DNA from: a phage
Sequence record: NC_103192.1
Length of the DNA stretch: 64,000 bases
Direction: 5' to 3' (one strand)
In this document: piece after piece, positions 5,106 to 62,374 of the stretch
How the letters are laid out: every line of letters starts with the position of its first letter
Position numbering within the stretch: the stretch's first letter is position 1
Made by a program: the position numbers and the translations under genes
The notes under the pieces: model-generated
Seen by the model: the letters and a program-made list of their open reading frames with translations, nothing else
Told to the model about the DNA's origin: nothing
The model's database searches: none

Positions 5106-8100
5106 ATGAGCATGTATAGCTTCGATTTTGAGGCCTCCGGGCTTTTGGAAGATCCAGATCTTTATTATCACTGCGGCCTGTTTAAAGAGCTGAATAAGAA
5201 CCGTTTTATGCTGTTCCTCCCTCTAAATGACCGCACACACTACTCCGAGGAGGATATAGAGAAGGCTAAGAACTTTATTCTGGCAAAGAAAACTCTTTAT
5301 AAAGATTTTGAAGTTCGCATAGCAGATTTTTCAGAGTTGGAAGGTTGGCTTACAGGCAATTCTGACTGGTCACCAACAGCTTTGAACTGCCATAACTGCT
5401 ACAGTTATGACTTTATGCTGATGGAGAGATTATCCGGTATTCATTTTGATATGTTCCGTGATCCTAAATGCATGGGTACTATCAACGATCACCAGGTTAA
5501 CCTGTTTGATACGTTGGCGATGAGCCGAATCTTGTGGCCTGATCGCCCTTTACCAAAAGGTTGCCCGGACGCTGTATTCAACCCGGTTACTAAGAAAATG
5601 CAGCCTGTTGGTCCTCACGGCCTTATGGCATGGGGCTACGCTCTTGGTAACCAGAAAGTTCAAATTGATGACTGGCGCGATCTTCCGCTGTGGAAGTATG
5701 TGGATCGTGTATTTGAGGACGTTATCATCCAGGAGCTGCTCTGGAAAGAGCTAGTAGCGGAATCAAAAGGTGTATTCTACGGCAAATCTGACATGCAGAA
5801 CTTCATGTATGACCCTGCCAAAGAGAAGCCTAAAGGATTCAAGAAGATTACCTGGAAGAATGCATTACGCCGAGGCATGCTGCAGCACTTCCTGATGGAG
5901 CTGCAGGCCCGTCAGGGTGTGTATTTCGACATAGATGGGGCTATTGCTTTACGTGACCGTTGCGATGCGTGGATGAAAGAGATCGCTGATCGTGTTGAAC
6001 CTCAACTCCCTTTAAAAGAGTTGTCAATATCTCAGCGGCCCAAGTTCCCTGAAAAGCCGTTTAACCAAGATGGGACAATCTCCAATAATGGTTGGAAATG
6101 GTTAAAAGATAAGCTTGGCTACCCTGTGGACATGAGCGCTTTAGATTTCAAAGCCCCACCTAAGCGAGCATTTACCTCCACAGGAGATGTCAGTAAGATG
6201 GGGATAAAATGGTGTGAAGAGATGGGCTGCAAAGACCCCGATAAGATGGCTGCTTTCTTGAGAGGCTATATTAAGGGCACTTCCACACCACAACCTTTAC
6301 CTAAAGAGCTGATGGATCAGGCAATAAGTGATCTACAGCAGAAGCGAATGCCTGACTGCAAGATACCTATGAAAATCAGCAATCAGGACGACATTAAGCG
6401 ATACCTGATCAGTGCTGGTTGGCTTCCGACAATGTGGAGAACTAAGGATGTAACTAAAGACAGCAAGAAGAAAGCTCTACCTGATGCAGATGTTGATGCA
6501 CGAGTATATGCATATATGGACGAGCTTTTAGAGTCAGAGTATTGTGACCTAATTATCAACTTCTGGAACAAAACTGATGCTAAGTTTCAGACAACAGTGC
6601 ACAAGTTCCGAAGCTTTCCTAACTCCGAAAGGATTAAAAAGGAAGTATTCGGGAAAATACGCAGAAAAGCTAGGGCACTTATTACTTCCCCGCAACTGAA
6701 AGATACGTTTGGACACCTATGCCCGAATCTTGAAAGATTGAACGGAGAGATGGCTAAAGATATCGTCTTGTGGTTATCATTGCGAAACCGCAGATCGGTA
6801 CTTGATCCAATCAAGGAGGATAAGGTTGATACTGGTCTTCTTAATCACCCACGTTTGAAGATTGACCATAAGCTTCCTGCTAAAAGCTCTGGATTAACAA
6901 ACACTTCCCGACAGAAACACAGTATTTGTGCAAACATGCCTAAACCATCTCCTAAAGTGGTTATGGGTAAAGAGATGCGTAGTCTGTGGGGTGTTCCTCC
7001 AGGATACTTTGAGATCGGTATTGACGGGTCTAACTTGGAGCAGCTTATCGGGGCTTGGGGTGCCTTTGAGTTCGACAACGGCCTGTATTACGATGTTGTA
7101 AGTAACGGCGATGCACACTGTTATTCAGGAGATACACAAATTCTCACGGAGAAAGGGTGGGTGAGGTTTGAAGATCTTGATCCGGGAACACAAGTGTTCC
7201 AGTACGATCACAACACCTCGTCGATGAACCTTGTTACTCCATTAAATTACGTTAAGCGTAGTTATTGTGGGGATATGTATCATTTCCACAACAGCGGTGT
7301 GGATTTTATGGTTACAGATCAACACAGGATGCTGACCGTGGATCACAGAAGCAATAAATTGTTTGAAGATTTGGCAAAAGACCTGAAAGCAGGTAAAGGG
7401 TCTAATTCAGGAAGAAGGTTTATCCATGCGGCAGAGTTTTATGGGAATACAACCTTATCTCCTGCCCAGGTTAATTTGCTTATTGCTATTCACGATGATG
7501 GGCACTTGCATACAAATAAGGACGGCAGCATCGTGTGCAGGATTCAGGTCGGGAAGGGCAGAAAAGTTGCAACGCTTTTAGATACTTTTTCTGCTCTAAG
7601 CCTTAGTTATGTAGAGCAGAGCGGGAAAACCACAAAAGGGGGCTTACTGGCGAGAAGGTTCCAATTCCACGTTCCGTCCTGGGTATTTGAGTTTTTGGAC
7701 AGCAATAAGGATTTCACCTACAACCTGATGGACCTTGATAAAGAATCTAAAAACCTGTTTATAGCTTCTTTATCTAACTGGGACGGGTGGGTATCTTCCG
7801 AAGGTGGAAAAGTTGCCTACTACTCTCAGGCCGAGTGCAGGAAGAAATCTGTAGAGGTTGTGTCTGCGCTGGCTACTCAGTGTGGTTTACGGAATAATAC
7901 GGTAGCGATTCACAAAAAAGGTCGTTCCGTACAGCACAGAATCACGATTGGTAGCAAACAGAGAGCAGGGTTGCTGACACTATCTAAAGAGTCTGTCGAG
8001 GTGAGCGGTTCTTTGGTTTATTGCGTTACCGTCCCTTCTGGAGCAATCATTGTGAGAAGGAATGGTAAAGTGGCAGTGTGCGGTAACTGTAATAACGCCA

Positions 8101-8498
8101 AAGCTTACTCTTCTGTAGCAGGCAAGGAGATTTCCCGTAACGATGGTAAGCCTGTCACGTACGGTGTTATGTACGGGGCACAAAAAGATAAAGTTGCAGA
8201 TATGCTGGACATCTCTCCAGAGTTGGGACAAAGGGTAATCGATGCGCTTTGGGATGCCAACCCCGGTCTTAAGGGGCGTAAAGAGGATCTGGAGAAATTC
8301 TGGGAAGCAACTGGTAAGAAGTTTATCTACTCTTTTGATGGTCATGCCATCTGGACCCGATCTAAACACTCTTTACTTAATGCATACCAACAAAATGGTG
8401 GTGCATCGTTGTGTGACTTAGTTGGGATACTCATGCACCACCAAATGGTGAAGCGTGGGTGGTACGATGAAGGTGTTCGCCGTATTATCTATTACCAT
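5106..8498 (+). CDS. family A DNA polymerase, exon 1 (contains intein 7119..8087)
   Basis: 3'-5' exo motif FDFEASGL; Pol A motif A IGIDGSNLEQ and motif B RNDGKPVTYGVMYGAQ flanking intein; ORF stop 8502..8504 lies in intron. Confidence 0.85.
7119..8087 (+). mobile_element. intein (about 323 aa) with LAGLIDADG-type homing endonuclease-like insert, in DNA polymerase between motifs A and B
   Basis: N-terminal block CYSGDTQILTEKGW, C-terminal ...VYCVTVP...VCGN followed by +1 Cys; internal LLIAIHDDGH and LFIASLSNWDGW dodecapeptide-like motifs; exteins rejoin to ...SNGDAH|CNNAKAY... matching T7-like spacing. Confidence 0.75.
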
Positions 8499-8826
8499 AA
8501 ATAACATTGTGGCTTCGTGCAGTGATGCACGTCGAAAACCTCTTTAATTGACGGGAAGGCTAAGTTGACTTTTACACCTAAACATGGTAAAAGCTCGATA
8601 TGCTAATCCGCAGCGAAGCATCCGAGAGGATGAACGTTCAGAGACTATCGAAAGCATAGCTCCAGCATAGTTTGGTGTGAAGAAGCGAGTAGAGTAGGCC
8701 AGCAAGTGCGGTCGAAATGAGAGGTGCCTTGGTAACAAGGCAGTGAGATAGTCCGATCCATACGGGAAACTGTATGGCTATGCACGTAATGGTGCGGGGT
8801 AGCTTAACGACCTACCTGAACTATTG
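8499..8826 (+). ncRNA. group I self-splicing intron (no ORF) in DNA polymerase motif C
   Basis: Exon ends on U (..YYH, cat) with IGS-like GUGG at intron nt 10-13; core elements P-like ttgacgggaagg, Q-like aatccgcagcg, R gttcagagactatcgaaagc, S gagatagtcc; terminal G at 8826; splicing restores YYHDEYQLQV (Pol A motif C HDE). Confidence 0.75.
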
Positions 8827-9180
8827 GATGAGTACCAACTTCAAGTACCTGACACACCGAAGTATAAGACTGTGTACACCTTCGACACAATCGAAGAACT
8901 GGAAGCATTTAAGGCAGAGCAGGAGGCCAAACTTCATGTGTTCGACGGTCATAAGTACAAAAAGGCACGCAAGGATGAGGACGGAAACGAAGTGGTTGAC
9001 AGAGACGGAAACACGGTGTACGATCCTATCCTGAACGATGACGGAAAGCTTGAACTTATCTGGAGCCCTGTGGGTGAAATGGTGGTGCATTGCTTCTGGC
9101 AAGCTTCTAAAATGATGGGCGTCCCATTCCAGATCACAGGTGAATACTTGTGTGGGGCTAATTGGGGTAGTTGTCACTAA
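8827..9180 (+). CDS. family A DNA polymerase, exon 2 (C-terminal 117 aa)
   Basis: Begins DEYQLQV completing motif C; ends ...GANWGSCH, which I recall as resembling the T7 DNA polymerase C-terminus. Confidence 0.8.
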   Translation, partial: DEYQLQVPDTPKYKTVYTFDTIEELEAFKAEQEAKLHVFDGHKYKKARKDEDGNEVVDRDGNTVYDPILNDDGKLELIWSPVGEMVVHCFWQASKMMGVPFQITGEYLCGANWGSCH

Positions 9181-9229: not shown

Positions 9230-9514
9230 ATGGTAGTAGAACCAACAAAAACATTTACATCCATGACTATCCCTGTTATTATGCAGGTGGAGTGTGTTCA
9301 GGTATCTCAAGTGTGGCCTGGCACTAAAATCCCAACAGGGCCTGATTTCTTTCAGGTTGGGAAAGTGTATAATGTCTGGAAGGCACCAGATTGTTACCCT
9401 TTCATTAAAGATGACCGTGGGATGCTGTGGTATCTTGGAAATGATTTGACACTGCACCTTGGGAATGCTATTATTGCAGTATTCAGACTTAACAAGAAGG
9501 AGACCGATCAATGA
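9230..9514 (+). CDS. hypothetical protein (paralog family KDdxGxxWfl)
   Basis: ATG after AAAGAGGAG RBS; shares IKDDRGMLWYLG motif with next two genes. Confidence 0.55.
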   Translation: MVVEPTKTFTSMTIPVIMQVECVQVSQVWPGTKIPTGPDFFQVGKVYNVWKAPDCYPFIKDDRGMLWYLGNDLTLHLGNAIIAVFRLNKKETDQ

Positions 9515-9738
9515 CAACTTTGGTTAAAGCTACTTTTGTAGAAGAAAAGATGACAGACCTGTCCTTCTTTAAAGAAGGAAAGACCTACGAGGTTTATTAC
9601 GATAAAAATCGTGCAAACAAGATGATTAAAGACGAGGAAGGGATTGCCTGGTTTATCTCCCATCTGGCAAACGGTGAGTATCATATCTACGGAACCACCC
9701 TGCTTGCCAAGTTTGTAGCTGTTGAAGAGGATCTATGA
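9511..9738 (+). CDS. hypothetical protein (paralog family KDdxGxxWfl)
   Basis: 75-aa ORF, RBS AAGAAGGAG; IKDEEGIAWFIS motif. Confidence 0.55.
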   Translation: MTTLVKATFVEEKMTDLSFFKEGKTYEVYYDKNRANKMIKDEEGIAWFISHLANGEYHIYGTTLLAKFVAVEEDL

Positions 9739-9929
9739 AAGTAAAGTATCTGGCTGAAGGTATGAGTAGGTATTTTACCCTCGGAGAGGAGTATTGGCCC
9801 TTTACGGAAAATGGAGATGTATACGTGAAGGATGACCAAGGTGTGCCGTGGTTTCTGCACCATAATGGGTTGGGGTATTCCATCTACTGTGGTGCAGTGA
9901 ACAATACAACCCTTGCAGAGTTTGTCTAG
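9735..9929 (+). CDS. hypothetical protein (paralog family KDdxGxxWfl)
   Basis: 64-aa ORF, coupled start; VKDDQGVPWFLH motif. Confidence 0.55.
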   Translation: MKVKYLAEGMSRYFTLGEEYWPFTENGDVYVKDDQGVPWFLHHNGLGYSIYCGAVNNTTLAEFV

Positions 9930-9939
9930 AGGAGGCAGA

Positions 9940-10311
9940 ATGTTAGTAAAAGGTACCCACACAGTCAAGCAACGTATTGAAGTTGAGATCGATGATTGTG
10001 AGCTGAAGCATATTTTGCGGTCATGCTCCAACGTTTTGCTCCTTAGTGTTCTCCAGGAGCGAGCGGAGAACGAGTTCTTAAATGCACTGGCAGGCCGTCC
10101 TGGTGACTTCTGTGTACGTAAACGTGGAAATAACAAACCGTGGCTATGGGAAATCGATGCCAGCTGGGATTACCACAAAAATGAGGGTATAGATGAGCCT
10201 ATTCGCGAACTGACTGAAAACGAAGTTCAGATGTACGAAGATGTTTGCCAGTGGGCAAAAAGTCAACAAACCTACCTTGATCCTTGGTGGATGATTGAAA
10301 ATAGTCGTTGA
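9940..10311 (+). CDS. hypothetical protein
   Basis: ATG after GAGGAGG RBS. Confidence 0.55.
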   Translation: MLVKGTHTVKQRIEVEIDDCELKHILRSCSNVLLLSVLQERAENEFLNALAGRPGDFCVRKRGNNKPWLWEIDASWDYHKNEGIDEPIRELTENEVQMYEDVCQWAKSQQTYLDPWWMIENSR

Positions 10312-10336
10312 CAACAGGTCGGGGTAGATGTAAGAT
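10308..10336 (+). promoter_or_regulatory. sigma70-like promoter (TTGACA-17-TAAGAT)
   Basis: Consensus -35 and 17-bp spacer; 26-bp upstream context nearly identical to promoter at 18908. Confidence 0.5.
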
Positions 10337-10387
10337 ACCCCACACAAACAGAGCGTTGATTTTTAAATAACTAAGGAGACTGCCAAG

Positions 10388-10642
10388 ATGAAAATTACTT
10401 TGAAGCCAGAATGCGTTGCAAATGACCTAGCTTTTAAGGATTGCACAGTCGGTGCAATTTATGAAGCAGAGTTTTGTGAGAACCCTCTGGTAAAAGCCCT
10501 TCTGGAAGAAGGGGCCCCTTTATCACAAGAAGAGATTGATGAGCTGGAAAACTCAGCCCAGTGCCTTACCTTTAAAGATGATGAAGGAGACTCTGTCTGG
10601 TGCACTGTTAATGAAGTAGTTTTTGTAAAACCTGAGCATTAA
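10388..10642 (+). CDS. hypothetical protein (tandem paralog pair, AFxDCT...GDxVxCT)
   Basis: RBS AAGGAGA; paralogous to 10706..10966. Confidence 0.6.
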   Translation: MKITLKPECVANDLAFKDCTVGAIYEAEFCENPLVKALLEEGAPLSQEEIDELENSAQCLTFKDDEGDSVWCTVNEVVFVKPEH

Positions 10643-10645
10643 TAC

Positions 10646-10674
10646 TTGACAACATCGATAGGGCCTAATACAAT
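10646..10674 (+). promoter_or_regulatory. sigma70-like promoter (TTGACA-17-TACAAT)
   Basis: Consensus hexamers, 17-bp spacer. Confidence 0.5.
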
Positions 10675-10705
10675 GGCTCTATCAAAACGGAAGGGGACCA
10701 CAGCA

Positions 10706-10966
10706 ATGACCAAACAATATCAACGAATTAAAGCCAAGGTTAAGCCAGACTACTTGGAGAAGGACTCTGCTTTTCGGGACTGCACCGCAGACAAAGTTTA
10801 CACAGGTGCTGTTCTGTTAAACGATGAATTTGAAGTGGATGTTCTTGGCAAAGAGGCCGTTATCGAAGATGACAACGGGGACTGTGTTTTCTGCACCACC
10901 CGTGAGCTGGAAGTCTTAGAATACTTCGGTGAAATCTTCAACTCATTAGATGACGAGGAAGTGTGA
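10706..10966 (+). CDS. hypothetical protein (tandem paralog pair)
   Basis: Start at internal ATG with GGAAGGGG RBS (track ORF begins 10646 inside promoter). Confidence 0.55.
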   Translation: MTKQYQRIKAKVKPDYLEKDSAFRDCTADKVYTGAVLLNDEFEVDVLGKEAVIEDDNGDCVFCTTRELEVLEYFGEIFNSLDDEEV

Positions 10967-11367
10967 TGAAAAACATTTGGGATATTAGTATCTTTGAAGC
11001 CTCTGAGCTTGACGGTGCCGATGGGGTTATTATAGTTTCTGATGGAAAGGCAACATTGACCTCTGGACTGACCTATGAGGACACTACCTACGCATTGGGC
11101 GATCTTGCCTTGTTGAAATCAACAGGTGACTCTCTGGAAGAACGTCTGCAAGGATTTGCCTTTAAAGAAGGCACAAGCACCACACTGATGTGCACTACAC
11201 GCACTGTTCAGTTGGGCAACGGGGTCTATATGGTCATTGCTGTGTGCCCCAAATTCAGCAACATTAATAAAGATGATGCTGACGCTGTCAACGACGTGGT
11301 TGTCCTCTTCGTTGGTGACGCTATGGCAGATCTGATGAATGCAGGAGAAGCAGCAAATGAAGACTGA
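10963..11367 (+). CDS. hypothetical protein
   Basis: 134-aa ORF, coupled start. Confidence 0.5.
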   Translation: MMKNIWDISIFEASELDGADGVIIVSDGKATLTSGLTYEDTTYALGDLALLKSTGDSLEERLQGFAFKEGTSTTLMCTTRTVQLGNGVYMVIAVCPKFSNINKDDADAVNDVVVLFVGDAMADLMNAGEAANED

Positions 11368-11659
11368 AAACATCAACCCAACAGGATTCTTGAAAGTATA
11401 CCGTGAACTGCTATATACTACAGAGGACAGTGTTCTAGAGTACCCAGAATACCTTTTGCTGTATAAGTATCTACAGGAAGCTGGTGAAAATCTACCAGTT
11501 AGTGCAGAAGGCGGTCCAAACTGGGTCTACAGCGCATGGAGAAAGGTTGACATTCTCCCAGATCCAGGAAAAGATATGGTAGTTTGGCAGCTTATCAACA
11601 ACATCGGGATTCCAATCTTCGACGAAGCTGTTAAAATCTATTTTGAACTTGACGATTAA
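11357..11659 (+). CDS. hypothetical protein
   Basis: ATG after AGGAGA RBS. Confidence 0.5.
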   Translation: MKTENINPTGFLKVYRELLYTTEDSVLEYPEYLLLYKYLQEAGENLPVSAEGGPNWVYSAWRKVDILPDPGKDMVVWQLINNIGIPIFDEAVKIYFELDD

Positions 11660-11676
11660 TATCAGGAGACCTTAAG

Positions 11677-11922
11677 ATGACTGAAGTAGTTGCTCGCGCA
11701 GGACAGAAAGTACGTTGTGTTGAAGTGGGTTTTGGTGGCAAAGGGTGTCAAAACTTGACTCAAGGTAAGGAATACACTGTTGTTTCTGGCGGTGGTGACA
11801 AAAGTATTGTGTTCGATGACCATATTCTGGATGTTGAAAACTTTGAAATAATTGATGATGATGGTGATCCGATCACCTGCCTGCTGGACGGGAATTGGGG
11901 AACTTTTGAAGTGATTGGCTAA
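11677..11922 (+). CDS. hypothetical protein
   Basis: RBS CAGGAGA. Confidence 0.55.
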   Translation: MTEVVARAGQKVRCVEVGFGGKGCQNLTQGKEYTVVSGGGDKSIVFDDHILDVENFEIIDDDGDPITCLLDGNWGTFEVIG

Positions 11923-12005
11923 CAAATACCTATTGTAATTTGCAGAAGGGGATGCTAAAATAGTGTCTCCTTCTATGTTGTTCAAATAAAATCGGAGATT
12001 CCATA

Positions 12006-12371
12006 ATGGAACAAATGAACGATCAAACGTCGGTTGCGATGAACGAGCAAGAACAACCTCAAGAATTTTTCTTAGGGTTAAGTAAAGATCAAGTGTCTCT
12101 TCTGCTAGTGCTTTCTTCTTTCATGGGAAGACTTCAGGAGCTTACACAACAGCCAGAGGCTGAACAATTATTCCAGGCGCTGCGTGAAGAAGAAAAATAT
12201 CGTCGTTTGGACTATGCCTTAGGTTGGGTAGCTCAACAACGAGATATGCTGATGGCCCTCTCTGGGACCACAAGTTTTGCAATGGGCCTGTTGGCTCAAG
12301 TTCAGGACAAATTAATTCAAGCAGGGTTTGCACACACAGCAAACACCAACGAAGAACAAGGAGACAAATAA
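12006..12371 (+). CDS. hypothetical protein
   Basis: RBS GGAGA. Confidence 0.55.
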   Translation: MEQMNDQTSVAMNEQEQPQEFFLGLSKDQVSLLLVLSSFMGRLQELTQQPEAEQLFQALREEEKYRRLDYALGWVAQQRDMLMALSGTTSFAMGLLAQVQDKLIQAGFAHTANTNEEQGDK

Positions 12372-56546: not shown

Positions 56547-57530
56547 TTAACCTTTCACGAAGTGGTTATTAAGCAGTTGTCTGTGCTGAACCCACCCACA
56601 AAAGTTGGCAGACCAGAATTTACCATCACGGTCTTGATGGGTTACACCTTCCTGCCAAACACAGCTGTCTTGTGTGATTTCACATGAAGACAGGTAGTAG
56701 TTTAAACGTTCCATTGCGTTATCGTGATCCATAGGTGTTGCCTGGTGCTCGTAAGGGCTTGCATGGATACGATCCCCACCAATCAATTTTTTAGCCACAC
56801 TGTCTGCCTTTTCAAACGTGCTGTCAATATTTCGATAAGATACTTGTGCACAGCAACTAGCACTGATAGACAGAGCTTCTTTAGTATCGAGAATGCAGAG
56901 CTTTCCTTCTGTGTCACGTACAGCGTAGTTAAACTCTCCGTCCAAATAAACGTGCTCTACATATGGAGTGTGCCATTGCCCTGGTTTAAGGATTTCAGGA
57001 GTGCTATTCACAAGAGCTTCCCACATACAATTAGCCAACATCTGAATCGTAGGATCCGCATCGTGCCAGCAACGGAGATGGAAAAAATTATTCCACTCTG
57101 TGCTTGTTACAACTGTTTTCATGCGCTGAAACGGCTCCACTAAGCGGTTACATACTTGTTTATGGTAACCAGCAAGGGCGAACTTCTCTGCATGCCAAGC
57201 GGCGTTTTTTGCAGCTTCTTTCCAAAACTCTTCAGGGGTTAGCTCCATGTCAGTGTACTCTACACGGATCTTTTGATCGTGTTCTCCACCATCTTCCATA
57301 CCTCGCTTATTTACACCGAAGCGAACTGGCATTGCCGGATTCTCCACAATCTGCTGCAGCATCTTGCCGACAGGAACTGCACGGGAAGACATGGCGTTTC
57401 GGCTGAACACTCGGTGCGTCATAAGCTCTGAGTGAATAATTCGAGGATACTCTAGCTCAAAAGTGGTGATACGCTTACCTTTCTCGGAAATGCTGTCAGC
57501 AATGATCTTTGCAGTGCACAGTTTTAGCAT
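56547..57530 (-). CDS. thyX: flavin-dependent thymidylate synthase (ThyX family)
   Basis: ThyX signature-like THRVFSRNAMSSR (RHR..S....S.R pattern). Confidence 0.7.
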   Translation of the reverse strand: MLKLCTAKIIADSISEKGKRITTFELEYPRIIHSELMTHRVFSRNAMSSRAVPVGKMLQQIVENPAMPVRFGVNKRGMEDGGEHDQKIRVEYTDMELTPEEFWKEAAKNAAWHAEKFALAGYHKQVCNRLVEPFQRMKTVVTSTEWNNFFHLRCWHDADPTIQMLANCMWEALVNSTPEILKPGQWHTPYVEHVYLDGEFNYAVRDTEGKLCILDTKEALSISASCCAQVSYRNIDSTFEKADSVAKKLIGGDRIHASPYEHQATPMDHDNAMERLNYYLSSCEITQDSCVWQEGVTHQDRDGKFWSANFCGWVQHRQLLNNHFVKG

Positions 57531-57730
57531 TATTTAGCTCTCCTTGTTTTAATTTTGGAAATTTCGTCTGGGTTTATGTTGGCCTTAAATGCAAGGTATC
57601 TGTTAAACATATCAGAGCACATGTCTTGGGTGATCCTGGAGGCATACACCAGCTTACCGCCCAGATCATACACCTCTATCCAGTCACCGTATCTGACTAC
57701 AGGATCGCCACCTTTAGAACATCTGCCCAT
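57530..57730 (-). CDS. hypothetical protein
   Basis: 66-aa ORF. Confidence 0.45.
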   Translation of the reverse strand: MGRCSKGGDPVVRYGDWIEVYDLGGKLVYASRITQDMCSDMFNRYLAFKANINPDEISKIKTRRAK

Positions 57731-57731
57731 T

Positions 57732-58325
57732 TCAAATACCTTCTAAAAACTTCCCTATTTTGTACCAGCTGTTAGCGGTATAGTCAACACTAACCTTCAA
57801 CTCCTCGAATTGCTCGTAAGGAGTGTCTTTTAAGATTTTAATAACTTCAGGACGTGAAGCGAATTGATTCAGGTATTCATGCCTGTCGTCAATTATAACA
57901 TCTACAGCCACATTACCTTTGAAATGTGTGGCGTAGAAGCCGTGACCCTGGGTGTGATCGTCCAGATCCATAAAATCGCTGGTCCAACGCTTTAAGAACC
58001 TTGATTTAGATGCAAGGTGACCTTTCTTACATACAGAGATAAATGCAAGCTTGTGACCACGAGCCACCAAATCTTTCATAACCTCAATAGCCCCCTCTTC
58101 AGGCTTAAGAAAGTCGTAGAGGAACGGGTCACTCCAGAAATCAAAAGGCCCTATGATGTTTTCTTTGGGGCGATCAGGCCAATACTTTGACAGATCGTAA
58201 TACATCAGTCCGTTAGAAGGTTTAGCGACTGTCTTGCTGGCTGGACCATACAAACGCTCTAGCCATTCCCACCATGCTGTTCCTGAGTCTACCAGTGTTA
58301 AATCTACATCAATTCCGATCAGCAT
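57732..58325 (-). CDS. HAD-family 5'-deoxyribonucleotidase-like phosphatase
   Basis: DxDxT motif IGIDVDLTLVD; later VIIDDR. Confidence 0.65.
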   Translation of the reverse strand: MLIGIDVDLTLVDSGTAWWEWLERLYGPASKTVAKPSNGLMYYDLSKYWPDRPKENIIGPFDFWSDPFLYDFLKPEEGAIEVMKDLVARGHKLAFISVCKKGHLASKSRFLKRWTSDFMDLDDHTQGHGFYATHFKGNVAVDVIIDDRHEYLNQFASRPEVIKILKDTPYEQFEELKVSVDYTANSWYKIGKFLEGI

Positions 58326-58330
58326 TGTTC

Positions 58331-59890
58331 TCAGCCCTCTTTAGCATCAATATACTTGCACACAATCTCAGATGCGCACTCCCAAGGAGCTCCCTCGGGG
58401 TTAACAACATCAAACTCGATACCTTTTATCCCGTTCTTCTCTAAGCTAAGGTAAGTTCTGGAATCATTTCCCCAATCATATCCTGCACGGTGGATACGGA
58501 ACAGTAGAAGATCGCCACCTGTGCTGTATGCGTACTCGCCAAGGCATGCCAGCTCCTCTTTGAAGCCACCGTCGGAGTAAACAACAACCCCTTTACCTTC
58601 AGGGAAATCTTTCTTCAAGGATGCGACTGCGGCCTTACCGAAAGCATCTTCACCAAAGATAGGTTTAATCAGATTTTCACTACAATGGATCATCCATTCT
58701 CGCGGAGAAACATGCTTGCCGTCTATCATTAAGAACGGGCACGGTTCTTCTTTGTAGCGGCGATCATAAAGTGCATTCCACAACTGTGGTGAAATACCCG
58801 CTGCCTTAATTGCCACACTGAATAGCATTTCCTTTACCTCGCGGTGATGCGAGTTTGGAATGGCTTCCAACAAAAGATCTGCGATATGGTCTTTTCCACT
58901 GTTACCTGTTAAAAACACCATACCGTTTTGTCTTGCCACCCAAAATCCGGTTGTTGTGGTAAAGCAGTAACACTTACCCCCAGGTAACTCCTCTTTGTAA
59001 GGTTGAAAAGCTTTATCTGGATTATCATATCCGCCACTTTTACGCATCGAATAAGAGTCTGACTTTAGAATTTTTACCGCATAGCAAACGCTACGAGTTC
59101 TGCTCTCTTTATCACACTCCCTTTTGTAGTTATCTATTTCAATTTTGGCCTTTCTTCCACATTTTGCTGCTAAAAGCTGAAACAGATCTGCCTCCTCTTT
59201 AGAAGTGGTTGAGAAAGATTTGTATTTCTCGCACCCATCCCATTTCAGCATCTCGTTTAGTAGTTTTTCACTAGCATTAGAAGAGAGATTCCACCAATGG
59301 CTAGGTATACCATCTTTCTTCATGAAAGGGCTGTTGTAAATGAAAAAACGGGTGTAGCCAGGCATACTATCAAACTCTTTTTCGGAAAAGGTTACTCCAG
59401 TTCTTTTAAATAAGTATCGTAGCCTCTCCTTTTTACGGTCCTTTTTAATATTAAACATCAAAACACCCTCCCGATTTTTAACCTCAGAGGAGTCTGCTAA
59501 GATTGCAACTCTAAGCAGGTCAAAATCGTCAACATCCTCTCCAGATTCTTGATGGAAGGTGGCAGGTATATATCCATCGTAGCCAGTTTTGGATTCCAAA
59601 GTTATCTCTGACCACTCTCTAGCAATTCTTGATCCTCTTCTGTTTTCATACAGAACTTTGTGGTTAGGTGTTAAAACCATGGACCATGTGGCAAAAACGC
59701 CCTTTTCAAAAACTGGAGTATTGCCTTCAATAAATTCAGGTATCTCCCAATGCATTGCCCCAAATTTATCGCACACTGCCACGAAATCATTATCAAAATC
59801 TTCTATACTTTTCCACCCAGATTTGGTGAGGAACTCTGTACCACTCGGGACGCAGCACGGTGGAGCGTTAAGAACAATAATATCCATCAA
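58331..59890 (-). CDS. deoxynucleoside monophosphate kinase precursor (contains intein 58901..59854)
   Basis: Exteins MMDIIVLNAPPC + SGKDHIADLL... give P-loop LNAPPCSGKD, resembling T4-type dNMP kinase N-terminus (LSGVKRSGKD). Confidence 0.7.
   Translation of the reverse strand: MMDIIVLNAPPCCVPSGTEFLTKSGWKSIEDFDNDFVAVCDKFGAMHWEIPEFIEGNTPVFEKGVFATWSMVLTPNHKVLYENRRGSRIAREWSEITLESKTGYDGYIPATFHQESGEDVDDFDLLRVAILADSSEVKNREGVLMFNIKKDRKKERLRYLFKRTGVTFSEKEFDSMPGYTRFFIYNSPFMKKDGIPSHWWNLSSNASEKLLNEMLKWDGCEKYKSFSTTSKEEADLFQLLAAKCGRKAKIEIDNYKRECDKESRTRSVCYAVKILKSDSYSMRKSGGYDNPDKAFQPYKEELPGGKCYCFTTTTGFWVARQNGMVFLTGNSGKDHIADLLLEAIPNSHHREVKEMLFSVAIKAAGISPQLWNALYDRRYKEEPCPFLMIDGKHVSPREWMIHCSENLIKPIFGEDAFGKAAVASLKKDFPEGKGVVVYSDGGFKEELACLGEYAYSTGGDLLLFRIHRAGYDWGNDSRTYLSLEKNGIKGIEFDVVNPEGAPWECASEIVCKYIDAKEG
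58901..59854 (-). mobile_element. intein (about 318 aa) inserted in P-loop of dNMP kinase
   Basis: N-block CVPSGTEFLTKSGW (compare polymerase intein CYSGDTQILTEKGW); C-terminus ...GFWVARQNGMVFLTGN followed by +1 Ser; internal LLRVAILADSS LAGLIDADG-like motif. Confidence 0.7.
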
Positions 59891-60090
59891 AAACCTCCGT
59901 GGTATTCTTCAACTGCATCAATAATACTTTTACACTTATCTACCAGCTCGTTAGCCACTACAGCATCGTCTTCCCAAACAGCCTCCTCAATCTGATCAAG
60001 CAGTGATCGCATCTTACCCATCATTTCTGGGATAAAGTCTTCTGAAAAGCTGTCTGGAATTGTTAACTTTAGTGTCATTGTGGCCTCCAA
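59887..60090 (-). CDS. hypothetical acidic protein
   Basis: 67-aa ORF. Confidence 0.45.
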   Translation of the reverse strand: MEATMTLKLTIPDSFSEDFIPEMMGKMRSLLDQIEEAVWEDDAVVANELVDKCKSIIDAVEEYHGGF

Positions 60091-60105
60091 TCATACTATG
60101 CGTTA

Positions 60106-60564
60106 TTAGAAGTTTGTTTTTACACGTCCCTTTTCATCAACCTCGTTGTTAGCTAAAAGCGTTACAAAGTCTGTGAAACGGACATGAAGAACTTTTTTCT
60201 TATCAAGGTATCCTAAAGCCACCCCTGAGAAATTTAGCATCAAAGGGGCTAAAGAAGCTCTGGCACTGAAATGCCGTTGTTCTACCCTTCCAACACCCTT
60301 AGTGTAGGATGGGTTAAGATTGTAAGTTCTGAATCCTAGTTTTGTTGGAGCTTTAGAATTAAAAACAACTTTATAGCGTTTCTTACTCAACTTATGCTCC
60401 AGGATAAGCATTCCCTTATCACCTTTGATAAGTTGAAAATCTGTAAAGTGCTCTTTTAAGACGAAAGGTAGTGCCAGTCCCATCGCCTGTCCTCTTTGTA
60501 CCGCTGTCTCACCAAAAGCTTTTGCATCAGTAAGTTCTTTGGTCAAGTCTATGCTTTTGATCAT
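60106..60564 (-). CDS. hypothetical protein
   Basis: 152-aa ORF immediately downstream of MTase, overlapping its 3' end. Confidence 0.5.
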   Translation of the reverse strand: MIKSIDLTKELTDAKAFGETAVQRGQAMGLALPFVLKEHFTDFQLIKGDKGMLILEHKLSKKRYKVVFNSKAPTKLGFRTYNLNPSYTKGVGRVEQRHFSARASLAPLMLNFSGVALGYLDKKKVLHVRFTDFVTLLANNEVDEKGRVKTNF

Positions 60565-61375
60565 ACCTGGTCTCCAAAATGTATTGTAGTTCTTTCTTAC
60601 CTATACTCTTCATTCCAGCAGTCTTACCTGCTTCTTCTTGAAAAGAAGAATAGCATTCAGCAAACACTCTGTCAACACCGTCAACTAAAGATTTTATGAA
60701 ATATGTTGATTCTTCAGATTTTGGGTCATCATCCCCCAATACTTTTCCAGCATTATACCCAACACGTCTTACACAGAAGTCGTAGTCATCTGGTGTGCTA
60801 AAAGAAAATAACTTATTCTCTCCAATCTCTACAGGATCCCTATTGCACGCCTTTTTCTCCCAAATTTGGAAAACACATGGCACGTCATAAGGTTTACCAT
60901 TAAGTAAAAACGAGTTCTTAGGGCACCTTTCGCTGTAGACAAGGTGCATAGACATGTCCAGTTTGTTTGCAAAAAATATTTTTTCAAATGTCCGTGGCAA
61001 GATGAAGGCTATAGCCCCGCCAAGCTCTAGCAATGATGCACAATGGTTAAAGAATTTGCAAGCTAAAGATGAATTCTTGCCAAATGGTGGGTTACCTATG
61101 AAGACATCTGCCTTGGGATGCACCTCCAAGAAGTTTGCCTGAATGCACTGTGTTGGTCCTTCAAATTCAGGATCTGGTACTAGATCGTACGACAGTATCT
61201 TTGAAAATAGTTTTGAAAAAGAACCCCTTCCAGCAGAAGGCTCAACGTATGCACAATTCCCATACTTGTCTTTTACTTTACCAACAAGATATTCTGCATA
61301 CTCAGGGTTTGTGTAATATTTGTCGTTGGACTCTTTCTTGCTCAAAGTGCCTCCAAAAGGAAAAGGGAGGCGCAA
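60527..61375 (-). CDS. DNA N6-adenine methyltransferase
   Basis: Motif I-like VEPSAGRGSF and motif IV IGNPPF. Confidence 0.7.
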   Translation of the reverse strand: MRLPFPFGGTLSKKESNDKYYTNPEYAEYLVGKVKDKYGNCAYVEPSAGRGSFSKLFSKILSYDLVPDPEFEGPTQCIQANFLEVHPKADVFIGNPPFGKNSSLACKFFNHCASLLELGGAIAFILPRTFEKIFFANKLDMSMHLVYSERCPKNSFLLNGKPYDVPCVFQIWEKKACNRDPVEIGENKLFSFSTPDDYDFCVRRVGYNAGKVLGDDDPKSEESTYFIKSLVDGVDRVFAECYSSFQEEAGKTAGMKSIGKKELQYILETRYDQKHRLDQRTY

Positions 61376-61390
61376 GCCTCCCTATAATTG

Positions 61391-62374
61391 TTAGATTATC
61401 TGAATCAGGGTGTTTTTCATTTCTTCTCTGGTGCGGATGTTGTTACGGTCACGAACAACAGATCCACAACCTTCGCAGCGGTATGTTTTAAATGCACTCA
61501 GTTGAGTATACGCCAAAGCTTCTTCCTCGTGAAGGTGTTCTCCACCACAGCGTGGGCAACGAACTTTTGGCTCCTCGTCTTGATAGTACAATGACATGTT
61601 TGGGTGCTGCTTAGCAAACGGGCGAGCCAGCAAATACAGGCCTTCCAGAGACAAGATATCACCAACATTGTACTCCCGCATCTGTTTAAACGCCTCAAGG
61701 TCACCGTGAACACACTTGATCCACATTTCAAATGTGTGGTCAATCAGTTTCTGTCTGGCAAGTTGGAAGTATTTGCATGCATACTCCAAAGTGTTTGCAT
61801 TCAAACGGAATGCCTTCTTGATCATTTTAAGGGTGTCAACCTCTTTGTAGGGGCTTGTTGGAGGCAACCCGTGAAATGCAAATCGTTGGTTGGCCCACCC
61901 GCAGTCAAAACCTGAATTGTGGGCTACTGCTACATCGCATTTATCCAGATAATACCACAAATCCTGAATCAATTCGAGATCATTGTGAATATCCTCATCC
62001 CACATTTTGTAATCTGGAAGAGCGCAGTCAACCACACTAGGGTTGTCTAACCACTTACCTGCGAAAGTTAGCATATAGGGCATAACTTCAATACCACAGG
62101 TTTGAATGTTGGTCTTATAGTGCCCAAAGAACCAGCCGTTTGTTGGGGATGTCTCTGTATCATACACCCAAACTTTAGCACCTTTGTGCTCTTCAAGGAA
62201 GCGCTCCGTTGCTTCTCCTACAATCTCTGACATATTCTCTTGTGCACGTTTAAGCTGTAGTCGGATCCAGCTCTCGCGTGACTCACGGCCTAAAAATTCA
62301 CGAGCAATTTGTCTATTAGTGTATCCCTGTTGCTTTAGTGTTAAAATTTGCTCAAGAGTTAACTTTGTCATCAT
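61391..62374 (-). CDS. putative DnaQ-like (DEDD) 3'-5' exonuclease with C-terminal zinc ribbon
   Basis: Exo I-like VWVYDTETSP, Exo II-like AHNSGFD; CPRCGG...CEGCG. Confidence 0.55.
   Translation of the reverse strand: MMTKLTLEQILTLKQQGYTNRQIAREFLGRESRESWIRLQLKRAQENMSEIVGEATERFLEEHKGAKVWVYDTETSPTNGWFFGHYKTNIQTCGIEVMPYMLTFAGKWLDNPSVVDCALPDYKMWDEDIHNDLELIQDLWYYLDKCDVAVAHNSGFDCGWANQRFAFHGLPPTSPYKEVDTLKMIKKAFRLNANTLEYACKYFQLARQKLIDHTFEMWIKCVHGDLEAFKQMREYNVGDILSLEGLYLLARPFAKQHPNMSLYYQDEEPKVRCPRCGGEHLHEEEALAYTQLSAFKTYRCEGCGSVVRDRNNIRTREEMKNTLIQII

Follow-up and report, generated by a model that had tools for sequence, protein, structure and literature searches.

Among the described inteins closest to the one reported here are the P-loop inteins TerL1-a, DnaB-b, MCM-a and RFC-a, which interrupt the Walker A motif of helicases, terminases and clamp loaders, allow no nucleotide binding until they are spliced out, and are enriched in phage genes for replication and nucleotide metabolism (Novikova 2016, PMC4760082; Kelley et al. 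2016). Their "classic" site is GK^T, between Lys and Thr (Kelley et al. 2016, PMC5050341; the caret marks a splice junction throughout). Most class 3 inteins likewise lie in helicase-like P-loops, with Ser or Thr at +1 (Tori et al. 2010, PMC2807308), and in the AceL NrdHF intein, which has the triplet "MCT" and lacks His at both F:13 and G:6, class 3 splicing via a branched intermediate on the block-F Cys has been proven (Hoffmann et al. 2020, PMC7891396). The intein in the recombination directionality factor (RDF) of mycobacteriophage Bethlehem ("gp51 RDF" in Kelley et al. 2016) splices completely in Escherichia coli, accumulates precursor and splices more slowly when G316 is changed to His, and carries an endonuclease that is toxic to E. 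coli unless inactivated (PMC5050341). Within the Vequintavirinae, Pectobacterium phage CB7 has been reported to carry inteins in a helicase, in NrdA and in NrdB (PMC7344957). Here we analyse a stretch of 64,000 nucleotides of phage DNA (NC_103192.1; hereafter the window), in which positions 58901-59854 of the minus strand are very probably a full-length, probably active, mobile LAGLIDADG intein, acquired horizontally and seated in the Walker A loop (A-P-P-C^S-G-K-D) of a Vequintavirus gene for a deoxynucleoside monophosphate (dNMP) kinase-like protein, as judged from sequence comparison and structural models. Like the classic P-loop inteins, it interrupts Walker A and would prevent nucleotide binding until spliced; unlike them, its family sits two residues upstream, at G^SGK, so that the +1 residue precedes Gly-Lys, and its host is a small nucleotide kinase. 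Canonical inteins have Asp at F:4 and a His-Asn terminus (PMC4031507), whereas the window intein has Cys and Gly-Asn.

The interrupted gene and its intein-free alleles

A first-pass annotation, made from the letters of the window alone, had placed a 318-residue intein at 58901-59854. Translation of this segment on the minus strand gives exactly these residues (CVPSGTEFLTKSGW...GMVFLTGN), preceded by MDIIVLNAPPC and followed by SGKDHIADLL, and both the coordinates and the insert sequence are correct. The program-made list of open reading frames (ORFs) gave a minus-strand ORF at 58331..59890, whose length of 519 amino acids (aa) is right if translation starts at TTG, but the real start is almost certainly the ATG at 59887, giving 518 aa, because a GGAGG lies 7 nt upstream, a TGATG stop/start overlap joins it to the preceding ORF, and the start annotated in phage HMD-6 agrees. 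With this predicted start, the gene is divided as follows:

58331..59887, minus strand: whole precursor gene, 518 aa, 58.9 kDa, with N-extein, intein and C-extein in a single open frame
59855..59887, minus strand: N-extein, 11 codons (MDIIVLNAPPC), comprising the beta-1 strand and the first half of Walker A
58901..59854, minus strand: intein, 318 aa, 36.7 kDa, from C1 to G317-N318, a Hint domain split around a LAGLIDADG domain
59552..59854, minus strand: Hint N-terminal lobe, intein residues about 1-101, with block A CVPSGTEFLTKSGW and block B LTPNHKV
59090..59551, minus strand: LAGLIDADG homing endonuclease domain, intein residues about 102-255, with motifs LRVAILADSS (D121) and LNEMLKWDGC (D206)
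58901..59089, minus strand: Hint C-terminal lobe, intein residues about 256-318, with block F KCYCFTTTTGFWV and block G MVFLTGN
58331..58900, minus strand: C-extein, 189 aa and the stop codon, opening with the +1 Ser of SGKD, the second half of Walker A, and supplying the remainder of the NMP-kinase fold

Two plus-strand ORFs of 111 and 81 aa (59589-59995) overlap the 5' end of the kinase/intein gene; they are unsupported and probably spurious.

When positions 57500-61500 were compared with related genomes by megablast, all of the 121 related Vequintavirus records (121/121) aligned as two pieces covering 3047 of the 4001 bases, with exactly 954 bp (318 codons) absent from each; the insert was thus present in 0 of these 121 records, and the kinase intein is carried by 1 of 122 close genomes when the window is counted. 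The insert alone had no blastn match among 50,697 phage genomes. The insertion is far beyond chance, and we regard it as confirmed. The best match to the window was phage EI-SP-GF (97.4% identical), and the window phage is an rV5-like E. coli Vequintavirus, a myovirus. About 20 records titled "Campylobacter phage" (host Campylobacter jejuni) are more than 90% identical in nucleotides to this E. coli Vequintavirus region, which is an odd host label.

The intein-free allele encodes 200 aa (MDIIVLNAPPSSGKDH...), is labelled "deoxynucleoside monophosphate kinase" in HMD-6, and reads ...AATGCTCCACCAAGT^TCTGGAAAAGACCAT... across the insertion point in HMD-6 or EI-SP-GF; the predicted ligated junction peptide of the window is ...VLNAPPCSGKDHIADLL.... 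The P-loop reassembled by the first-pass annotation, NAPPC^SGKD, is in the right register but is not identical to the empty allele, which reads NAPPSSGKD (CCA CCA AGT^TCT GGA) where the window has NAPPC, the intein and SGKD (CCA CCG TGC^...^AGT GGA). The -1 residue is Cys (TGC) in the window and Ser (AGT) in all intein-free alleles examined, and the +1 Ser codon (58898-58900) is AGT instead of TCT. The last 15 nt of the N-extein (59855-59869) hold 4 differences from the intein-free alleles and 5 from EI-SP-GF (AAC/AAT, CCG/CCA, TGC/AGT), and the 18 nt across the junction hold 6 and 7, respectively, against an overall divergence of 2.7-4.4%. Downstream of the junction, approximately 100 nt follow with no further differences from the intein-free alleles.

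Fold and catalytic residues of the intein

The AlphaFold2 (AF2) model of the insert (predicted local distance difference test, pLDDT, 83.6; predicted template modelling score, pTM, 0.84) matched the inteins TliVMA (7QSS/7QSU), PhoVMA (7QST), PI-SceI (1VDE) and PI-PfuI (1DQ3) by Foldseek, with E-values of 4.5e-12 to 2e-8 and TM-scores of 0.53-0.67. These four, which we take to be canonical class 1 inteins (Asp F:4, His-Asn), share with the insert a Hint domain carrying an inserted endonuclease with two LAGLIDADG motifs, but only 10-16% sequence identity, and PI-SceI has an extra DNA-recognition region that the smaller window intein lacks. The centre of the model matched the LAGLIDADG enzymes I-DmoI and I-Tsp061I (E about 1e-4, TMt 0.5-0.58), in keeping with the alpha-beta-beta-alpha-beta-beta-alpha pseudo-dimer fold of such endonucleases, and two LAGLIDADG motifs, each closing on an acidic residue, were located in the sequence (LRVAILAD121SS and LNEMLKWD206GC).

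In block B (T62-P-N-H65), T62 corresponds to B:7, H65 to B:10 and V67 to B:12; in block F, C297 is F:4 and V306 is F:13; and in block G, T316, G317 and N318 are G:5, G:6 and G:7. As the first-pass annotation had stated, Cys1, the C-terminal Asn and the +1 Ser are all present, and together with the block B TxxH they are invariant or nearly so in 169 family copies. The conserved catalytic positions of the intein are C1, H65, C297, T316, N318, D121 and D206, with K141 also conserved. The penultimate His (G:6) is missing; Gly317 takes its place here, and Gly is found in 162 of the 169 family copies. Although the insert itself found no profile, some aligned relatives matched Pfam weakly (Intein_splicing, 1.9e-5; Hint_2, 1e-4; LAGLIDADG_3, 4.3e-4; and also Hint), LAGLIDADG_3 being matched by 3 of 10 aligned family members, and the C-terminal block F/G peptide had no intein match in the PDB. 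Fold, motifs, family and the 121 empty alleles all bear out the claim of an intein that carries a LAGLIDADG-type endonuclease domain.

It is extremely improbable that the 318 residues are instead an ordinary kinase domain, a group I intron or a free-standing homing endonuclease gene. Such a reading could appeal to the lack of a Hint or intein match in Pfam and NCBIfam, but the Walker A motif is interrupted and cannot function in that state, the same cassette occurs in unrelated proteins, the model has the Hint and LAGLIDADG intein fold, the stops or frame changes expected of an intron or a free-standing endonuclease gene are missing, and the homology is at the protein level with exact Cys...Asn^Ser boundaries. 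The first-pass annotation would have been disproved by an extein alignment showing the insert as a normal domain of homologous kinases; the 954 bp are absent from 121 relatives, and the split Walker A, the empty alleles and the fold effectively refute all three variants.

The host protein

The whole precursor matched PHROG_139 (deoxynucleoside monophosphate kinase) at 5.4e-38 over residues 330-517 with the insert kept, and at 1.4e-43 over residues 1-199 with the insert removed. Pfam, NCBIfam and phmmer against the PDB returned only noise for both the whole ORF and the spliced extein. The spliced exteins of six kinases aligned with no gap across the junction. The AF2 model of the spliced 200-aa protein (pLDDT 84, pTM 0.79), for which the alignment was built against full-length precursors, has a strand at residues 2-7 and a helix at residues 14-24, and the junction (residues 11^12) therefore lies in the beta1-alpha1 P-loop. 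Foldseek searches with this model retrieved P-loop nucleoside monophosphate (NMP) kinases, including adenylate and shikimate kinases, among which the T4 dNMP kinase (gp1, 1DEK) was third by E-value (6.9e-5) with the top TM-score (0.55). The spliced extein and T4 gp1 have the same fold, an N-terminal xSGKD Walker A and the PHROG_139 label in common, but they are only 14% identical and T4 gp1 has no intein. The Walker A motif A-P-P-C-S-G-K-D is whole only after splicing, and the C-extein contains the conserved features D121-x-G-F and D157-S-R. Additionally, the kinase gene has genes for a 5'-nucleotidase and ThyX as neighbours, consistent with nucleotide metabolism. The spliced product is accepted as a dNMP-kinase-like P-loop kinase, and the first-pass placement of the insert within the Walker A loop of such a protein stands on PHROG_139, the fold and the gapless exteins.

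The intein family and its Walker A site

An exhaustive phmmer search of the insert against 1.84 billion representatives returned 1803 clusters at E<=1e-3, 644 of them at E<=1e-10. The best 150 of the 1803 clusters all scored at least 88 bits and were nearly all full-length, at varied positions in proteins of 202-1542 aa. A word-indexed protein search was insensitive, giving 8, 4 and 5 hits and missing even the intein-free kinases. With tblastn, the full-length cassette (residues 1-318, 28-31% identity) was found inside unrelated phage proteins in 157 records, including RecD-like and PhoH-like proteins, RtcB and helicases, and among the PHROGs the insert matched an internal part of intein-bearing PhoH and ribonucleotide reductase (RNR) families. 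Further family hosts comprise terminase-like and DnaC/IstB-like proteins, RNR and many helicase-sized proteins.

From the 160 nearest proteins, 161 full-length inteins were collected. Every one begins with Cys (161/161), 154 end in Gly-Asn, and 121 (75%) are located at x^[S/C/T]GK[S/T/D], with the +1 nucleophile just before Gly-Lys and Gly at -1 in 116. In the family alignment (A1), block A positions C1, T6, L9, T10, G13 and W14 are invariant or nearly so. Eight large proteins (P0013, P0016, P0018, P0023, P0041, P0058, P0151 and P0156) carry two family inteins each, often one at Walker A and the second at ...DE^C or ...GE^C, possibly Walker B.

The experimentally studied relative is the Bethlehem RDF intein (GenBank AY500153 gp52 "phosphoesterase"; HD^CSWT...HLTGN^SRA, 317 aa), which matched the family profile over its full length at 5.7e-21. 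It resembles the window intein in length (317 against 318 aa), Cys1, Cys F:4, the ...LTGN^S terminus and a nested endonuclease that aligns with the family LAGLIDADG core; it differs in its host, a metallophosphoesterase-type RDF of an actinobacteriophage, in its non-P-loop site, and in a low direct similarity to the window intein (14 bits pairwise). Because this relative splices better with Gly than with His at the penultimate position, the missing His is a family trait and not a defect. In a search of positions 30-45 kb of Bethlehem for the class 3 MP-Be DnaB intein, the family profile matched only the RDF intein.

The window intein is genuine but rather unremarkable as a member of its large phage family, and its host gene seems to be new for phage LAGLIDADG inteins. 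The best explanation of its lineage is probably a large phage-borne family, seated mostly at the G^[S/C/T]GK of unrelated P-loop nucleoside triphosphatases (NTPases), in which the dNMP-kinase copies are closest to each other. It adds a small nucleotide kinase to the hosts of P-loop inteins and provides an example of P-loop insertion two residues upstream of GK^T, the classic site.

Kinase-site relatives, origin and probable mobility

Five metagenomic dNMP-kinase homologues have a family intein at the identical position:

P0001: NAPPC^C...GN^SGKD, intein 82% identical to that of the window
P0002: GPPG^...^SGKD, intein 36% identical
P0003: GPPG^...^SGKD, intein 35% identical
P0011: GPPN^...^SGKD, intein about 31% identical
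P0014: NKPR^...^SGKG, intein about 38% identical

By score, dNMP-kinase copies hold ranks 1, 2, 3 and 5 among the nearest relatives of the window intein, with P0011 outside the top eleven. Because the dNMP-kinase copies are mutually nearest, the kinase-site inteins look like an old allelic group. The contig of P0001 (L003) is from a distant rV5-like phage, while L006 and L007 are T7-like contigs that encode PolA, a DnaB-like helicase, ligase and endonuclease I. An intein in the dNMP kinase gene was found in none of the 50,697 deposited phage genomes, and a scan of IMG/VR and JGI metagenome contigs for close relatives gave only a 23%-identical locus (L005). The first-pass annotation knew of no intein at this site; our full-text literature search likewise found no description of an intein in a dNMP kinase gene, but the site is not unique to the window, as the five metagenomic copies demonstrate.

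The intein has a lower GC content than the C-extein (0.401 versus 0.467), also at third codon positions (GC3; 0.377 versus 0.453). When compared to L003, the window is 80% identical in nucleotides over the intein, 67% over the C-extein and 51-59% over the flanking genes, and synonymous differences amount to a proportion of 0.60 in the intein and 0.81 in the C-extein. The intein, more similar than the C-extein and the flanks, is younger than the divergence of the host genes. The P0001 allele, whose precursor is 77% identical, also shares the -1 Cys (TGT) and an AGY codon for the +1 Ser (AGC), consistent with co-conversion of a short tract from a donor resembling P0001. When the window copy is compared with that of P0001, the ratio of nonsynonymous to synonymous rates (dN/dS) is 0.09 over the intein as a whole and 0.083 over its endonuclease domain, and both splicing and endonuclease activities appear to be kept under purifying selection. 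Cleavage of the intein-free allele is predicted indirectly, from the dN/dS of 0.083, the sporadic distribution and the restriction of differences to the junction. As the best explanation of these sequence comparisons, the intein would have reached this phage lineage horizontally, recently and independently of the intein in the DNA polymerase gene described below.

We infer autocatalytic splicing from the conserved residues, the purifying selection (dN/dS 0.09) and the experimental splicing of a relative. In the proposed course of events, the 58.9-kDa precursor would be translated with a split P-loop and could not bind ATP. The intein would then excise itself by forming a thioester at the N-terminal junction, on Cys1 or possibly on Cys297, the N-extein would be moved to Ser+1, and cyclisation of Asn318 followed by an O-N acyl shift would leave a 22.2-kDa kinase whose P-loop is intact and, separate from it, the 36.7-kDa intein. 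During mixed infection, the released intein would use its LAGLIDADG domain to cut intein-free kinase alleles across the insertion point, and repair from the occupied allele would copy the intein together with a few flanking bases (homing). One Vequintavirus with the intein and 121 relatives lacking it constitute a natural pair, with which homing, co-conversion and fitness cost are testable in a tractable E. coli phage.

Several observations weigh against an active, mobile intein in a dNMP kinase. The insert sequence had no significant match in Pfam, NCBIfam or, by phmmer, the PDB. The His residues at G:6 and F:13, the normal helpers of Asn cyclisation, are both absent. LAGLIDADG motif 1 reads ADS instead of the family ADG, with Ser in only 8 of 169 copies, and endonuclease activity may therefore be reduced. 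The differences around the junction could be due to drift or to selection on flanking residues and not to co-conversion. Regarding the host, the extein comparison with T4 gp1-type kinases suggested by the first-pass annotation succeeded in fold (TM 0.55), but the profile of spliced homologues matched T4 gp1 (1DEK) only weakly in sequence (E 0.042, first 64 positions), and the predicted kinase activity and substrate range are read only from the fold, the PHROG label and the neighbouring genes. The first of these points is not counted as evidence against the intein, as the lack of a profile match reflects the divergence of the family: the sequence itself went unmatched in the proposed Hint/LAGLIDADG profile search, yet fold, family and comparative genomics reveal an intein, and treating a missing Hint match as disproof, as that annotation proposed, would wrongly reject it. 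Such inteins are invisible to Pfam and NCBIfam, and annotation would list the gene as a hypothetical protein of 519 aa.

We consider it very unlikely that the intein has decayed or lost splicing and that the kinase gene is a tolerated pseudogene. Its presence in 1 of 122 genomes suggests a recent event with no long selection yet, and the non-canonical G:6 and F:13, the change of Ser to Cys at -1 and the ADS of motif 1 could be read as signs of decay; however, the 518-codon frame is open, all family-conserved catalytic residues are present, comparison with a copy 80% identical in nucleotides gives a dN/dS of 0.09, Gly-Asn is usual in the family and works best in the Bethlehem RDF intein that was tested (PMC5050341), and the 77%-identical P0001 precursor has the same -1 Cys.

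Splicing route

Because Cys1 is present, the window intein is class 1 by definition. Its active site is unusual, with Cys for Asp at F:4 (in 167 of 169 copies), Thr at G:5 (151 of 169), Val at B:12 and no His at F:13 or G:6. Class 3 inteins are marked by the lack of an N-terminal nucleophile, whereas Cys1 is found here, in all 161 full-length copies and in 163 of the 169 aligned copies; two of the three residues in the WCT triplet of class 3 are matched (Val67, Cys297, Thr316). Cys F:4 lies 21 residues from the terminal Asn, a spacing equal to that of MP-Be DnaB (C320 to N341; Tori et al. 2010, PMC2807308). Among solved structures, the AceL NrdHF intein (6ZGQ) was the best sequence match to the family profile A1 (E 1.1e-10). 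Both have Ser/Thr at B:7, His at B:10, an aliphatic residue in place of Trp at B:12, Cys at F:4 and Thr at G:5 and lack His at F:13 and G:6, and the AceL intein is also probably of phage origin; it differs in having no N-terminal nucleophile and no endonuclease domain, in being naturally split, and in its site, which is in NrdHF and not in a P-loop. The class 3 route is proven there, whereas the window intein keeps Cys1.

A class 3 or dual route, in which Cys297, and not or not only Cys1, attacks the N-terminal junction to form a block-F branched thioester before transfer to Ser+1, is therefore worth weighing, although we judge it quite unlikely. The pattern of Cys F:4, Thr G:5 and missing His shared with AceL NrdHF, the rank of that intein as best structure match, and the +1 Ser and P-loop site typical of most class 3 inteins (PMC2807308) speak for it. 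So do three members that have Pro in place of Cys1: the terminase-like P0027, P0044 and P0159, whose inteins begin at residues 39, 122 and 35 with PLS... in the place of the CLS or CVD of their relatives, retain both Cys F:4 and the TGN^SGK terminus, and are candidate class 3-type derivatives within the family. Conversely, the near-universal Cys1 argues that it is functional, Trp B:12 is replaced by Val, the homologous Bethlehem RDF intein was placed in class 1 by Kelley et al., by sequence only (PMC5050341), and a change of Asp to Cys at F:4 is known in some class 1 inteins (PMC4031507).

Since the clade has both nucleophiles, Cys1-less members and AceL NrdHF as its best structure match, a broader but unlikely reading can be put forward tentatively. 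In it, a very large clade, mostly of uncultured phages and perhaps not previously delimited (Cys1, aliphatic B:12, Cys F:4, Thr G:5, Gly G:6), would home to the Walker A G^[S/C/T]GK and represent a dual-nucleophile intermediate on the way from class 1 to class 3; with one generic Walker A position as its site, it would therefore jump among unrelated P-loop NTPases, small nucleotide kinases included. A transition from class 1 to class 3 has been argued to be implausible (Beyer et al. 2020, PMC7664689). The window active site joins Cys1 to features seen in a proven class 3 intein (Cys F:4, Thr G:5, no His), and the question of a link between the two classes across the family is the only part of the present results that is possibly beyond routine.

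The polymerase intein

The window holds a second intein of the same broad family in a gene for a family-A DNA polymerase (ORF 5106-8504, 1132 aa):

7119..8087, plus strand: polymerase intein, 323 aa, DAH^CYSGDTQ...AVCGN^CNNA

Copies of this intein, 92-99.7% identical, occur in 6 of the 120 related Vequintavirus records, while the other listed polymerase records align as two pieces over 70-71% of the query, consistent with the exact absence of 969 bp. The deposited records call the whole polymerase ORF either hypothetical protein or DNA polymerase and nothing more. The kinase and polymerase inteins are 21% identical in a full-length pairwise alignment (E 3e-8), and by phmmer the polymerase intein scored 15.6 bits against the kinase intein, rank 168 of the 171 family sequences tested. 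Both match the A1 profile, which was built including both sequences. Outside Vequintavirus, the polymerase intein is nearest (about 31% identical) to inteins in Staphylococcus-phage NAMPT and RNR genes, and within the family set it is nearest to second, non-P-loop inteins of proteins that carry more than one. Of the six phages with the polymerase intein, at least four (YP-6, EPFV3-03/2025 and others) are among the records lacking the kinase intein.

The first-pass annotation had read a close resemblance between the N-terminal blocks of the two inteins as one lineage colonising two genes of the same genome. Neither part is upheld: the resemblance is the family-wide block A motif and reflects no specific relationship, and the 21% identity, the 15.6 bits, about 1800 clusters that are closer and the separate nearest relatives contradict a single lineage. 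Spread of the kinase intein from the polymerase intein within the genome, or the reverse, is accordingly most improbable. The two do belong to one broad family, with a common block A motif, a GN terminus and a match to A1, but at rank 168 of 171 the polymerase intein is far from the kinase intein, which has 1803 library clusters within E<=1e-3 and its nearest relatives in other dNMP kinases, and the polymerase intein is common to six sister phages, while no deposited genome has the kinase insert. From their sequences, the kinase and polymerase inteins are evidently independent acquisitions.

Other interrupted genes of nucleotide metabolism

On L006, the contig that carries P0002, the ThyX gene (7027-9006, plus strand) also has a family intein (PIH^CFDSETEV...FISGN^SSPFEHQ), and the RNR large subunit has a LAGLIDADG_3 match, probably another intein. 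In the window, ThyX (56547-57530, minus strand) is intein-free at the equivalent site (RIH-ASPYEHQ). On L003, the anaerobic NrdD is present at 9250-12261 as four ORFs (176, 208, 176 and 116 aa) with HNH_3 and Endonuclease_7 genes close by, which suggests that this gene is split by an intron or a homing endonuclease.

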